From sequence record PP261279.1: a stretch of 64,000 nucleotides of DNA; one strand, given 5' to 3'. How positions within the stretch are numbered: the first letter of the stretch is position 1; each line of letters opens with the position of its first letter. Origin of the DNA: Escherichia phage ECP2303. The notes under the pieces were generated by a model. That model saw nothing but the letters and a program-made list of their open reading frames with translations, searched no databases and had not been told where the DNA came from. Shown in pieces: positions 1-26,955 of this stretch. The position numbers were made by a program, and so were the translations under genes.

Positions 1-110
1 TGACACTTTTGCCACTTTTGACACTTTTACCTTTGACACAATGTCACACAATATGCCATAATCTGACACCTTATACACTTTCGACACAATAACGACTGTT
101 ATTATTTCAT
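1..110. repeat. iteron-like cluster of (T)GACAC direct repeats
   Basis: Direct reading: tgacac/gacac recurs about six times in ~100 bp with one inverted copy (gtgtca); non-coding. Confidence 0.5.
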
Positions 111-189
111 GTTTCATTGTTCACGTATAGACTATTCCCGCATAGACTGTTTACGCCTGGATAGTTTACACCTTGACAGTTTACACAAA

Positions 190-23588: not shown

Positions 23589-25667
23589 TTAAAAAGGTGT
23601 TTCGTCGTCTTCAAAACCAGGAACGTGGTTAGAGGACGGATCATCATACTGAAGATCTTCCTGTGTGTCAACAGGGTTAACAGCAGGAGTTATAACCTTA
23701 TCAGCCACAACCTTGCCCACAGGTGTTTCTACAACTGCATGCTCCTGATCCTCAAACATAGCTTGAGGTCTCCAAACAACCTCTCCACCTTCCCCGTCTG
23801 TAAACATCTGCATCTCTTTATCCCAATACCAATTGCTGGCATCGTGGAACTTGCCTGTGTGGGGATCCATAACTAGGGTGTCCGCAATACCTAAGGTTTT
23901 TGCTGGGCGGTTTTTAAGACCTACCAGCCGGACACGTCCACGGGAACGATCCACCATCTCCTCTGCCTCTACCCCGACAACCACCCAGCTAAGTTGCTCC
24001 AATCCGGCACTACCGCGAAGGTTCTCTTTTCGCACAGGGTACCAGAAAGGTAACGGATTTCCATCCTTATCCTTCGGAGGTACAATCTCTGTGCGCTTCA
24101 GGTGAGCAATCACCAAGATAAACACATTAAACTGCTTACAGAACGCGGCTAGTTGAGTCATAGCCATGTCAAGCTCTTTACGCTCATCCTTAACATTAAG
24201 CCCTGAAATCACCATAGACAAGTGATCCAGCACAATGTAACGGCAGTGATACAGGCACACCATTTGTTTAAGCTTAGTGATCAGCTCATCTACAGGGATG
24301 GAGCCGAAATGCTTGAACACTTTGATTTTTCCGGCCTTGGCCCAAGATTGATGAATCTCAGCGTGCTCCTGATCGGTCAGGAACTGACTGGGGTCTTCAA
24401 CAAACTCTTTAACATCAAACCCCAGCTGGTTAGCGTACAGAGAGTTGATTGCTTCCTCAGGATCCTCTTCAAGGTGAATCAGGCACAGGCGATCATCCTC
24501 TTCATAATCATCAGCTTTAGGGCATGTTGGGTCCATCAAGTATCTTGCAATGCAATGTTCCAGCTTCTTGGCTACAGTTGTTTTACCACCGCCAGACGGG
24601 CCTGTCAGCATCATCAAGGTGCCTTTGTGGAGTCCTTTCAGCATCTTCTGCAGTTTAGGGAACTCTGCACTAATATCCACGCCATTGGAAGTCTTCTTAC
24701 GAAGAGATTCAATGGAGAAGTCTTCTAAATCAGATACAGCATCAGGCACATATTTGACTGGGTGACGGAACATGTTGACAATATCTTCCAGCTTTTTAGC
24801 CTTCAGCATGTCACGAATATCTTTTACACCATCAGGGTCGTTTACCTCACCTGGGTATTCCACGTGGTAAACGTTGTCAGCCATCAAAAATGCTGCGATA
24901 TTATGCGTAGCTTCAACACCTTTGATAACGTGTTTTTGCTTCTCTACCTCGTTAGCTGCATCGTTGTCCATTGCAAGGACTACTGTTCCGTAGCTACGGA
25001 TAAATTTCTCATTGTTCGCAAAAGTGTCTACGGCGTTTGCACACCCGCAGTTAATTCCGACAAAAGGCAGGCATGGTTTTCCTGCCAGATCACCGCCGTT
25101 GATAACTGCATCAATCCCATCCTGGACTTCTTTAGCCCACTGCTTCACCTTCGCTGGGGCTTTAGCATTGGTGAGAATACCTTTTACTTGTACCTGATAT
25201 GCAGCCTGCCACGCTGCAATAACATCTCCTTCCCCCTCACAAACGTTAATCTGCTTGCGGTTGTTGGAGGATGCACACAGCTTTTGACCAAACATCTGGG
25301 AGTTGGCCTTTACTATGCCGACAACCGAGAAATGGCCCCTTTGCTCTTTAGGGATTGTCCAGTCACGCTTTTTAAAGCCAGATAGATTACCGTAGCGGTC
25401 ATAATACGGAAAGTAGGTGGCAGTAACAGTTACGCCATCCTCTTGGGATAGCGATGATCGTACACCAAAATATTGTGCAGCCATCAGTCCAATATTTTGT
25501 TGTGGAACAGGGACAATTTTAGTATTTTCTAAAACAGTCTCTACAGTTTCAACTTCTTTTTCATCACGATAGTCTCGTTTCACACTTCCCCCACTTTTAT
25601 ACTTAGTTGCTTTCGGGTTTGGCTCACCGAAACGGTTGTATGCAGATGCCATGAATTTACTGCCCAT
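23589..25667 (-). CDS. primase-helicase (TOPRIM primase + DnaB-family helicase, T7 gp4-like)
   Basis: 692 aa; TOPRIM-like VCEGEGD and LAMDNDAAN; Walker A LTGPSGGGKTT; VLDHLSMV; IAHLKR; LRGSAGLEQLS. Confidence 0.85.
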   Translation of the reverse strand: MGSKFMASAYNRFGEPNPKATKYKSGGSVKRDYRDEKEVETVETVLENTKIVPVPQQNIGLMAAQYFGVRSSLSQEDGVTVTATYFPYYDRYGNLSGFKKRDWTIPKEQRGHFSVVGIVKANSQMFGQKLCASSNNRKQINVCEGEGDVIAAWQAAYQVQVKGILTNAKAPAKVKQWAKEVQDGIDAVINGGDLAGKPCLPFVGINCGCANAVDTFANNEKFIRSYGTVVLAMDNDAANEVEKQKHVIKGVEATHNIAAFLMADNVYHVEYPGEVNDPDGVKDIRDMLKAKKLEDIVNMFRHPVKYVPDAVSDLEDFSIESLRKKTSNGVDISAEFPKLQKMLKGLHKGTLMMLTGPSGGGKTTVAKKLEHCIARYLMDPTCPKADDYEEDDRLCLIHLEEDPEEAINSLYANQLGFDVKEFVEDPSQFLTDQEHAEIHQSWAKAGKIKVFKHFGSIPVDELITKLKQMVCLYHCRYIVLDHLSMVISGLNVKDERKELDMAMTQLAAFCKQFNVFILVIAHLKRTEIVPPKDKDGNPLPFWYPVRKENLRGSAGLEQLSWVVVGVEAEEMVDRSRGRVRLVGLKNRPAKTLGIADTLVMDPHTGKFHDASNWYWDKEMQMFTDGEGGEVVWRPQAMFEDQEHAVVETPVGKVVADKVITPAVNPVDTQEDLQYDDPSSNHVPGFEDDETPF

Positions 25668-26421
25668 TAATTCTTCTCCTTACTGCAGGCTCGTTTGCTA
25701 AGAATACAGCTCTTGCCCAGCCACGTGGTGTAAGGCTTCGAATCATCTTCGTCCTTGCACTCTTTCCACCTAGCTTAGCGTGTTGCATGGAATAACCACT
25801 AACCACATCAACTATTTGCGGGACAGGTTTTGTGGCGGGGATTATAAATCCATTGCCTATCCAACCGCAAGTTATTTTTGGGTAGGCATCACGTGGAGCT
25901 ATAAATTCAGGAAACCATGGGTTTACATCATCCTCTGGTAGATACCCACCATAATCCGAAGGATGAAAACGGTAATCAGGTTTTCGCCACAGTGTTGACA
26001 TAACTCCTACAGGGTTCTCTACATGCCACGGGCAATCGTAAATCTCTCCCAACTCTTCTGCAACCCGAGCATCTTTCACAGCATCAATTTGGATCAGAGG
26101 ATCCTTAGCCAGCTTTTTCTTAAAGTGTGCAGCTCCGGATACTGCTAAATGCGTGCACGGAGGAAATGCAAGAATAAAGTCTGGAGCTGGGTACATGCAA
26201 AAAGTTTCTTGAGGGAACCACGGGTCAATCCAATAATCCACGTAGTGAATGTTGGAATGATCGGTTATCACCTCTGCATAACTGCCATGGTCAGCACCTT
26301 CTGCGTTAAAGCACAGGCACAGATATCCAGCTTTTGCCCAGTCAATAACTGCACCACCAGACCCGTCAAATAGACTCCACACAACACCTTTGTGGTAGTG
26401 TTCTTTGTAGATAAATTTCAA
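25657..26421 (-). CDS. C5-cytosine methyltransferase-like protein with atypical PPCT catalytic motif
   Basis: Motif order matches C5-MTases: I SLFDGSGG, IV AFPPCTHLAVSG (PCQ is canonical), VI HVENPVG; likely TTG start after RBS aggagg; ORF-track start lies upstream of the terminator hairpin. Confidence 0.55.
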   Translation of the reverse strand: MKFIYKEHYHKGVVWSLFDGSGGAVIDWAKAGYLCLCFNAEGADHGSYAEVITDHSNIHYVDYWIDPWFPQETFCMYPAPDFILAFPPCTHLAVSGAAHFKKKLAKDPLIQIDAVKDARVAEELGEIYDCPWHVENPVGVMSTLWRKPDYRFHPSDYGGYLPEDDVNPWFPEFIAPRDAYPKITCGWIGNGFIIPATKPVPQIVDVVSGYSMQHAKLGGKSARTKMIRSLTPRGWARAVFLANEPAVRRRINGQ

Positions 26422-26438
26422 TTTGCTGCCTCCTAATG

Positions 26439-26467
26439 CAAAAAGCCCCACCCTTTCGGGCAGGGCC
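26439..26467 (-). terminator. rho-independent terminator with GAAA tetraloop (copy 2)
   Basis: Minus-sense gccctgcccGAAAgggtggggc followed by tttttgcatt; near-identical to 16280-16308. Confidence 0.6.
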
Positions 26468-26472
26468 TAGTG

Positions 26473-26955
26473 TTAAACCCGGATACCTATTGTATACTCG
26501 GTGGATACCAATGTCAAATCTAAATTTAAAATTTCTTGCATCTCATAGTATGCATCCAGAGTGAGATACATTTCCCCATCCTCTTCTACATACTTGTCGA
26601 GATGTTTGAGGCACTTTGGATAACTATCAAGGGCAGCTTTTAAGCACTCAAACTCCGTGCTGTTGATGAATCCTTCCATCTTGGCTACCCGTTCTGGAGT
26701 AACAATAGCACTGTAGTGAGATTTAGCTTCCTGAATGCAATGGGTCCAAGCATCAACTTTCTCTTCAAAAAGCCCGAAGAATTTCTTTTTGGTAAGTTTC
26801 AGATTTTTTAAGTGCTTAAGCACTCGGTTGCCGATTACAGCCACATCACGAAACTTAAAGATAACTTTGTCGATATCCTCGCGGCCTATTTTCACAAAGC
26901 AGGCCTTGCACATCTCGGGAGCAGCGTAGCCTACCTTCCACATAAAATCTGACAT
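26473..26955 (-). CDS. hypothetical protein
   Basis: 160-aa ORF. Confidence 0.6.
   Translation of the reverse strand: MSDFMWKVGYAAPEMCKACFVKIGREDIDKVIFKFRDVAVIGNRVLKHLKNLKLTKKKFFGLFEEKVDAWTHCIQEAKSHYSAIVTPERVAKMEGFINSTEFECLKAALDSYPKCLKHLDKYVEEDGEMYLTLDAYYEMQEILNLDLTLVSTEYTIGIRV

Follow-up and report, generated by a model that had tools for sequence, protein, structure and literature searches.

A solitary SAM-dependent DNA cytosine-C5 methyltransferase (C5-MTase) of the PHROG 757 family, with no partner nuclease, is very probably encoded on the minus strand of the 64,000-nucleotide stretch of Escherichia phage ECP2303 DNA analyzed here (PP261279.1; the window), as part of the core gene set in the replication module of Vequintavirus. 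The gene is an ordinary, already annotated, and already known cytosine-C5 methyltransferase of all rV5-like coliphages. On sequence grounds, the protein belongs to a compact phage family of Dcm-like C5-MTases which includes the Dcm of phages K42 and KarlJaspers (Bas06). It carries little weight as a discovery, being a routinely annotated rV5-like core gene with an already characterized homologue.

Gene location and genomic context

The DNA of the window was that of a Vequintavirus and was 100% identical to Escherichia phage ECP2309. Mechanical ORF calling placed the gene at 25657..26451 on the minus strand with a GTG start (264 aa). The TTG at 26421 is the better call for the start of the gene, because the GTG lies inside the stem of a hairpin and the nearest cluster in the database (P0001; 332 member sequences, 97% identical) has the same length of 254 aa. 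The hairpin separates the methyltransferase gene from the ORF upstream of it, whose stop is at 26473; a promoter-like match was located within the 3' end of that ORF. The last 11 nt of the gene overlap the start of a primase/helicase gene (ATG 25667), and the gene is placed in the DNA replication module. Scans of the window for tRNA genes and Rfam families revealed no match. The features are collected in Table 1.

Table 1. Features of the methyltransferase gene and its upstream region (window positions)
Feature	Position	Strand	Basis and remarks
CDS, 254-aa Dcm-like cytosine-C5 DNA methyltransferase	25657..26421	-	TTG start, TAA stop included; ORF and translation, PHROG 757
C-terminal conserved block RSLTPRGWARAV, residues 228-239	25705..25740	-	Resembles motif IX by sequence
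Variable segment flanked on both sides by conserved blocks, about residues 196-215	25777..25836	-	Subtype counts; pairwise alignment with Bas06 Dcm
YPKITC, residues 180-185, strand beta7	25867..25884	-	Invariant K182 and T184 at motif VIII position
Motif VI HVENPVG, residues 133-139	26005..26025	-	Aligned to ENV of DNMT3A and M.HhaI
Motif IV AFPPCTHLAVSG, residues 85-96	26134..26169	-	Aligned to GFPCQ (M.HhaI, E. coli Dcm) and SPCND (DNMT3A)
Motif I SLFDGSGG, residues 16-23; follows strand beta1 as the SAM-binding loop	26353..26376	-	Aligned to SLFDGIATG (DNMT3A) and LFAGLGG (M.HhaI)
Shine-Dalgarno-like GGAGG	26429..26433	-	7 nt upstream of TTG 26421; read directly from sequence
G+C-rich hairpin followed by T-run, terminator-like	26443..26468	-	11-pair stem, 7 G-C pairs, tail TTTGCATTAG; pattern match only
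Sigma-70-like promoter match TTGACA-17-TACAAT	26489..26517	-	11/12; consensus match only

Family membership and distribution

The protein matched the PHROG 757 profile 'DNA methyltransferase' over residues 2-252 (E 2.3e-86). A total of 4182 homologues were found at E<=1e-3, and tblastn matched 1507 phage records; the motif conservation is therefore not a product of chance. Members of the PHROG 757-type family were 219-262 aa long (median 232), and all the signature blocks of the family (DGSG, FPPCT, ENPV, K-x-T-C-x-W, and GGKSxRTKxIRSLTPRG) were present in the protein. All 115 matching records of related Vequintavirus-type phages contained the gene, with a nucleotide identity of at least 92%, and the Vequintavirinae of the BASEL collection carry it under the annotation 'Dcm-like C5 cytosine methyltransferase'. 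In a prophage, a family member has Dam, NinG, and RusA as neighbours but no nuclease beside it.

Scans of the 254-aa protein against Pfam and NCBIfam remained below every threshold, with no Pfam match at E<=1, and PF00145 gave weak sub-threshold matches in 15 of 25 relatives (best 1.3e-6). Among PDB sequences, phmmer returned only an insignificant match to M.HaeIII (E 0.37), and hmmsearch with the family profile found no chain. The family escapes the Pfam and NCBIfam models, which explains the label 'hypothetical protein' in many records, including that of the source phage.

Conserved motifs and predicted structure

The initial annotation had described a 254-aa ORF with three motifs in C5-MTase order, and the ORF and the motifs SLFDGSGG, AFPPCTHLAVSG, and HVENPVG were all found where it had placed them. 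When aligned to M.HhaI, M.HaeIII, Dcm, and DNMT3A, the protein showed the superfamily order F18-D-G-S-G-G, P88-C89, and E135-N136. Conservation was measured over two sets, of 25 sequences and of 206 diverse sequences, in which G20, S21, P87, P88, C89, T90, E135, N136, P137, K182, T184, and the SLTPRG string were invariant or nearly so. V138 was likewise invariant, together with E135, N136, and P137, in the 25-sequence family alignment, and F86 of FPPC was kept in at least 90% of the 206 diverse members. The catalytic Cys89 is encoded at 26155-26157 and Thr90 at 26152-26154 (minus strand). Glu135 is the ENV-type glutamate, equivalent to the E128 mutated in K42 Dcm. The R-x-R of motif VIII appears to be replaced by K182-x-T184 on strand beta7, where K182 matches K176 of K42 Dcm.

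The C-terminal block RSLTPRGWARAV resembles motif IX, which reads RRLTPRECARLM in E. coli Dcm and RKLHPRECARVM in M.HhaI. It aligned to motif IX with M.HhaI (E 0.57) and Dcm (E 0.12) and to the target-recognition (TRD) loop with DNMT3A (E 0.27); each of these alignments was non-significant (E 0.12-0.57), yet the same register was obtained from two canonical enzymes. The conserved R233 falls in the block aligning to motif IX. Downstream of the block, nothing resembling the canonical motif X GN(S/A)V could be seen in the alignments with M.HhaI, Dcm, and DNMT3A. When the protein was aligned pairwise with Bas06 Dcm, the segment at about residues 196-215 alone was gapped and dissimilar; it is of the subtype 'GYSxQH' in the rV5-type protein and 'NPGW' in K42/Bas06 Dcm, and may represent a putative minimal target-recognition loop.

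The AF2 model (pLDDT 88.8) displayed the seven-strand order of a class-I MTase. Foldseek analysis of the model revealed the methyltransferase domains of DNMT3A/3B as the best matches (E 2e-6), and the predicted class-I Rossmann-like fold matched DNMT3A/3B, M.HhaI, and M.HaeIII. The initial annotation had named the absence of such a fold as grounds against its assignment; the fold is present, so this objection fails. The hhalign comparison of the 206-sequence family profile with DNMT3A (probability 85%, E 6e-6) aligned motifs I, IV, and VI; profile alignment set C89/T90 against C81/Q82 of M.HhaI and C710/N711 of DNMT3A. Comparison of the 25-sequence alignment with E. coli Dcm aligned motif IV alone and was not significant. 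Motif order, predicted fold, and profile alignment thus support the C5-MTase assignment. The protein is also short for a C5-MTase, as had been remarked, with 254 aa compared to 327 aa in M.HhaI, 472 aa in E. coli Dcm, and 285 aa in the DNMT3A catalytic domain.

Threonine after the catalytic cysteine

Thr90 in PPCT, read directly from the sequence, replaces the Gln that follows the catalytic Cys in canonical enzymes, as first described. The description of this Gln as invariant was refuted, since DNMT3A/3B/3C carry P-C-N at this position and DNMT3A/3B are active enzymes. PPCT was found in 118 of 120 close homologues and in at least 90% of the 206 diverse homologues, and Gln was never found; P87-P88-C89 was invariant and T90 was kept in at least 90% of members. 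As judged from these alignments, the Thr of PPCT characterizes a large phage family and is no peculiarity of this protein.

Activity within the family is documented for K42 Dcm, which produced high levels of 5mC on msDNA by LC-MS (bioRxiv 10.1101/2023.08.16.553469; published as Cell Rep 2024 43:114857). The 5mC was lost in a C82A/E128A/K175A/K176A mutant, and the enzyme triggered retron Ec86 (bioRxiv 10.1101/2023.08.16.553469). In that study K42 Dcm was assayed for 5mC alone (bioRxiv 10.1101/2023.08.16.553469). Within the family, 5mC formation is shown only for this enzyme. The copy in phage tonijn, near-identical to Bas06 Dcm, has C82, E128, K175, and K176 exactly as published for K42 Dcm. 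We infer that the orthologue encoded here would be active as well.

Proposed mechanism and alternative explanations

The conserved C5-MTase active site suggests that SAM would be held by the Rossmann-like core together with motif I (FDGSGG), and that Cys89 of PPCT would attack C6 of a flipped-out cytosine while Glu135 of ENP contacts its N3/N4, with Lys182/Thr184 standing in for the motif VIII residues. Methyl transfer to C5 would be followed by release of the enzyme by beta-elimination. The large target-recognition domain found in classical enzymes appears to be replaced by the very short variable loop (about residues 196-215) and the basic GGKSxRTKxIRSLTPRG block.

The proposal that the Thr-for-Gln change points to a different substrate or altered chemistry was left unsupported, given the PCN of DNMT3, the Thr as the family norm, and the 5mC made by a PPCT homologue. 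In its fullest form, such a reading would have the cofactor pocket opened by the smaller Thr and by the apparent lack of the canonical Asn in motif X, so that a group other than methyl (e.g. carboxymethyl from host Cx-SAM) is transferred or a free nucleotide serves as the substrate. CmoX (PDB 8yf3), a phage DNA cytosine C5-carboxymethyltransferase, likewise has P-P-C, and its use of Cx-SAM results from a single substitution at the position of M.HhaI N304 (PMC12783734). The equivalent of M.HhaI Asn304, which in CmoX is an Arg that contacts the carboxyl of Cx-SAM, could not be located in the family by sequence alignment. Cx-SAM is produced by E. coli (cmoA is present in MG1655). However, CmoX is defined by SPPC, Arg350, and a co-occurring phage CmoA (PMC12783734), whereas the rV5-type protein has FPPC. 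When 50,697 phage records were searched by tblastn with E. coli CmoA, no homologue was found in Escherichia phages; the 86 matches lay elsewhere, in Erwinia, Pseudomonas, Synechococcus, Staphylococcus, and other phages. Identity with CmoX was rejected on these two grounds. DNMT3A is also without the Gln and is a plain methyltransferase, and the DNA of Vequintavirinae is readily restricted, which argues against a bulky global modification. Altered chemistry or cofactor use is thus very unlikely. Very little probability is likewise given to an at least partial transfer of groups other than methyl; a weaker version of this reading would have the GYSxQH loop direct the enzyme to a target unlike CCWGG.

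A Dnmt2-like enzyme, which would use the DNA-MTase fold to methylate cytosine C5 in RNA (tRNA), is highly improbable, since its structure matches score below DNMT3B/3A and the bacterial DNA MTases, the K42 homologue methylates DNA, and the gene overlaps a primase/helicase gene in the DNA replication module. Least probable is a methyltransferase relic that has lost catalysis and serves to bind DNA or to regulate. The sub-threshold Pfam and NCBIfam scores, the unusual motif VIII, and the undetected motif X would suit it, but all catalytic residues (FxGxG-type loop, P-C, E-N) are kept without exception in hundreds of diverged sequences, a pattern consistent with purifying selection on catalysis, and the homologue is active in dependence on those residues.

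Biological role

The DNA cytosine-C5 methyltransferase probably serves, as we infer, to methylate phage DNA as it replicates and, collaterally, the DNA of the host, blunting cytosine-sensitive restriction. BASEL Vequintavirinae were reported as 'exceptionally susceptible' to the restriction-modification (RM) systems tested, so that any protective value of methylation is narrow. CCWGG sites in the window (134 observed vs 154 expected) showed no avoidance and did not reveal the specificity, and in the literature searched there was neither a methylome nor a determined motif for the Vequintavirus or Drexlerviridae enzymes of the compact Dcm-like family. Sensing of the methylation by retron Ec86 is a side effect known in relatives. 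As the relatives are the trigger of this defence, identifying the phages with an active copy helps to predict sensitivity to retron Ec86.

Comparison with known methyltransferases

The family is among the smallest C5-MTase architectures. In comparison with the classical enzymes M.HhaI, M.HaeIII, and E. coli Dcm (PF00145), the phage protein has PCT for PCQ, ENP for ENV, and apparently K-x-T for R-x-R. The spacing from motif VIII to the putative motif IX is about 40 residues, as against about 100 in classical bacterial C5-MTases, and unlike these the phage protein falls below the Pfam gathering score and has no recognizable GN(S/A)V motif X. The proposed short-loop architecture is most like that of the small-TRD DNMT3 enzymes. 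Sequence identity to the DNMT3A/DNMT3B catalytic domains is only about 15%; the ADD and PWWP regulatory domains are absent from the phage protein, and the C-terminal motif IX/X region of DNMT3A/DNMT3B could not be aligned to it.

The closest known system is the Dcm of the Drexlerviridae phages K42 and Bas06. The KarlJaspers gene bas06_0055 (711 bp) encodes a protein that is 54% identical in an alignment of 235 residues (E 4e-87) and shares PPCT, ENPV, the K-T block, and GGKSxRTKMIRSLTPRG with the rV5-type protein. Both enzymes are compact (236 aa and 254 aa here), and both are orphan enzymes of lytic coliphages. They differ in the variable loop, where the rV5-type protein also has a 4-residue insertion, and in the genomic neighbourhood, the overlap with a primase/helicase gene being a feature of the rV5-type gene. 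For the K42 enzyme, CCWGG was assumed and not mapped, and a dcm+ host without the phage enzyme showed little 5mC on msDNA (bioRxiv 10.1101/2023.08.16.553469), which fits poorly with an identical CCWGG specificity. Because the variable loops differ, the specificity of the K42 enzyme is not transferable to the rV5-type enzyme.

Family assignment and fold

Scans of the 254-amino-acid window protein against Pfam and NCBIfam gave no match, while PHROG 757 'DNA methyltransferase' matched with an E-value of 2.3e-86. Homologues could be collected as 4182 sequences from a large protein collection, 2064 clusters from a 50%-identity representative library and, by tblastn, 1507 phage records, which include Drexlerviridae, Vequintavirinae, Klebsiella siphoviruses, Vibrio phages and Roseobacter phages. 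Weak matches to PF00145 (C-5 cytosine DNA methylase) were present in 15 of 25 aligned members (best 1.3e-6). The AlphaFold2 model built from the family alignment was confident (pLDDT 88.8, pTM 0.89) and revealed the class-I methyltransferase order of strands and helices. Foldseek comparison with the PDB placed the methyltransferase domains of DNMT3A/3B at the top (E 2e-6, probability 1.00), and the BFVD matches were family members named 'DNA-cytosine methylase'. The SAM-binding Rossmann fold, whose absence was to count against the initial annotation, is present according to AlphaFold2 and Foldseek; the assignment of the protein as a C5-methyltransferase is right, given the PHROG 757 match, the fold match to DNMT3A/3B and the motif alignment.

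Gene start and motif positions

The mechanical ORF call extended the ORF to a GTG codon, giving 264 amino acids. The TTG start, read from the sequence with a GGAGG element at a spacing of 7 nt, is the better call, because the GTG falls within the stem of a hairpin that is rich in G+C and followed by a T-run, and because 254 amino acids is likewise the length of P0001, the closest cluster in the database (97% identical, 332 member sequences). All three motifs lie where the initial annotation had placed them. The stop region shares 11 nt with the ATG (25667) of a 692-amino-acid primase/helicase gene (PHROG 239, E 2e-158).

Features of the methyltransferase gene and its upstream region (window positions)
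Feature	Residues	Position	Strand	Basis
Methyltransferase CDS	1-254	25657-26421	minus
TTG start		26421	minus	read from sequence
GGAGG		26429-26433	minus	read from sequence
GTG start of 264-amino-acid ORF		26451	minus	mechanical ORF call
Motif I SLFDGSGG	16-23		minus	translation
Motif IV AFPPCTHLAVSG	85-96		minus	translation
Motif VI HVENPVG	133-139		minus	translation
Cys89 codon	89	26155-26157	minus
Thr90 codon	90	26152-26154	minus
Terminator-like hairpin with T-run		26468-26443	minus
Promoter match TTGACA-17-TACAAT		26517-26489	minus
ORF of 132 amino acids		26968-27366	minus
ORF of 101 amino acids		27366-27671	minus
N6/N4-type methyltransferase, 447 amino acids		27728-29071	minus

A near-consensus sigma-70-like promoter match was observed within the end of the upstream ORF, followed about 20 nt later by the strong terminator-like hairpin and then by the methyltransferase ribosome-binding site. 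A promoter running into such a hairpin is odd; the hairpin may end upstream transcripts or stabilise the new 5' end, or the promoter itself may be a chance match.

Threonine after the catalytic cysteine

P87, P88 and C89 were invariant in 25 aligned homologues, and T90 was nearly so (Asp in two). The 120 closest clusters read PPCT in 118 cases and PPCD in 2, T90 was kept in at least 90% of 206 diverse full-length members, and the residue following P-C in 150 representatives was T, D, E, N or another, never Q. When a profile of the 206 sequences was aligned with M.HhaI, C89 fell on C81 and T90 on Q82 (E 0.037). The profile aligned much better with the catalytic domain of DNMT3A (probability 85%, E 6e-6), pairing SLFDG with SLFDG, PPCT with SPCN and ENP with ENV; both reference sequences matched the PDB exactly. 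The initial annotation had called the Gln after the Cys invariant; DNMT3A, 3B and 3C read P-C-N-D-L, so Gln is not invariant among active C5-methyltransferases. Its reading of PPCT was accurate, but the motif is no novel oddity: Thr at this position typifies a large phage family that is already annotated and includes a member shown by experiment to be active.

Activity of a homologue and alternative readings

In a study of retron Ec86, escape mutants were isolated from phage K42 of the Drexlerviridae (95.4% identity with KarlJaspers/Bas06), and a 711-bp 'dcm' gene was disrupted in all of them (bioRxiv 10.1101/2023.08.16.553469; later Cell Rep 2024 43:114857). LC-MS detected high 5-methylcytosine on msDNA of the retron after expression of K42 Dcm, but not after expression of the C82A/E128A/K175A/K176A mutant (bioRxiv 10.1101/2023.08.16.553469). 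In the corresponding 711-bp gene of phage tonijn, C82 lies in PPCT, E128 in ENPV and K175-K176 in FKKTC, a numbering identical to that published for K42 Dcm. Over 235 residues, the window protein shares 54% identity (E 4e-87) with the Bas06 protein bas06_0055, labelled 'Dcm-like C5 cytosine methyltransferase'. The LC-MS result together with PPCT in these relatives therefore demonstrates that a PPCT enzyme of the PHROG 757 family makes 5-methylcytosine in DNA.

The initial annotation had also proposed altered chemistry. In concrete terms, the enzyme would transfer a group other than methyl, for example from Cx-SAM. This has a precedent in CmoX, a phage DNA cytosine C5-carboxymethyltransferase that is homologous to C5-methyltransferases and uses Cx-SAM via Arg350 at the M.HhaI N304 position (PMC12783734), and a host Cx-SAM synthase, CmoA, exists. 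However, the K42 homologue gave 5-methylcytosine. CmoX is defined by SPPC with Arg350 and usually accompanies a phage CmoA (PMC12783734), whereas the PHROG 757 family has FPPC and a CmoA homologue occurs in no Escherichia phage record. The 'exceptionally susceptible' response of Vequintavirinae to restriction systems further argues against bulky or global DNA modification, and altered chemistry is thus highly improbable. An RNA-directed, Dnmt2-like role is unlikely, as the homologue acts on DNA and the gene lies within the replication module; a dead-enzyme role is likewise unlikely, with catalytic residues invariant and a homologue active on DNA.

Genomic setting and distribution

Across the 12 kb surrounding the gene, identity was 100% with Escherichia phage ECP2309 and 92-98% with rV5, FV3 and further Vequintavirus genomes. 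The full-length gene was found in 115 phage records with nucleotide identity of at least 92% and is therefore a conserved gene of the Vequintavirus group. The replication module runs DNA polymerase, primase/helicase, C5-methyltransferase, three small ORFs, N6/N4-type methyltransferase, helicase and rIIB. BASEL Vequintavirinae (AlexBoehm, CarlMeissner, JeffSchatz and others) carry the same gene at 92-95% nucleotide identity, labelled 'Dcm-like C5 cytosine methyltransferase'. Records elsewhere name it DNA cytosine methyltransferase or Dcm-like; PP464953.1 (26116-26880), whose phage matches the window, has only 'hypothetical protein', likely because Pfam/NCBIfam models miss the PHROG 757 family. 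An E. coli prophage copy in a nin-type region adjoins Dam, NinG and RusA without a nuclease, which is consistent with an orphan enzyme.

Sixteen GenBank records (MG0656xx, e.g. MG065644 and MG065666) entitled 'Campylobacter phage' and listing Campylobacter jejuni as host were 92-93% identical to the window across the region; their host or organism labels look wrong. The N6/N4-type enzyme 1.3 kb upstream is a second orphan DNA methyltransferase (Pfam N6_N4_Mtase E 1e-43, PHROG 67); its relatives are labelled adenine methyltransferase or type III Mod-like, and a nearby nuclease gene is absent. Directly downstream of it, the 101-amino-acid ORF (PHROG 4240, unknown function) weakly matched the C-terminal part of PHROG 1573 'DNA methyltransferase' (E 2.9e-6) and may represent an accessory methyltransferase domain that has become detached. 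The first 50 residues of the 132-amino-acid ORF (PHROG 11995, unknown function) weakly matched PHROG 10384 'DNA ligase' (E 5.8e-7). Scans of the 64 kb detected neither tRNA genes nor Rfam families.

Target sequence

For K42 Dcm a CCWGG target was an assumption, made because defence was lost when either C of the msDNA CCTGG was mutated; those experiments used dcm+ MG1655, where little msDNA 5-methylcytosine was seen without the phage enzyme (bioRxiv 10.1101/2023.08.16.553469). This points to a phage enzyme whose specificity is unlike that of host Dcm, or to an msDNA site that host Dcm has no access to. No avoidance of CCWGG was found in the window (134 sites observed, 154 expected), and neither GATC (ratio 0.95) nor CCWGG (0.87) was depleted against Markov expectation across the 64 kb. 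On the same measure, depleted palindromes were CCCGGG (0 observed, 6.1 expected), CTAG (ratio 0.59), GGATCC (0.57) and CCGG (0.73).

Compact architecture and comparison with known enzymes

The remaining interest lies in the target specificity and in the unusually small architecture. Between the motif VIII position (K182/T184, strand beta7) and the conserved C-terminal block RSLTPRGWARAV (residues 228-239), only about 20 residues (196-215) vary strongly in the family, with types such as 'GYSxQ[HYF]' in the window protein and 'NPGW' in K42/Bas06; we infer a putative minimal target-recognition loop. The block was 45% identical over 20 residues to motif IX of E. coli Dcm (RRLTPRECARLM; non-significant E 0.12) and aligned in the same register with that of M.HhaI (RKLHPRECARVM; non-significant E 0.57). 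Most members terminate a few residues past the block, where no motif X GN(S/A)V was recognisable, and the last helix (233-251) may be a candidate for that role. About 44 residues separate the motif VIII position from the C-terminal block in the window protein, compared to about 107 in M.HhaI. Around the catalytic cysteine, the family reads PPC-T-D-L by consensus, which is similar to the DNMT3 variant; the window protein itself has PPC-T-H-L.
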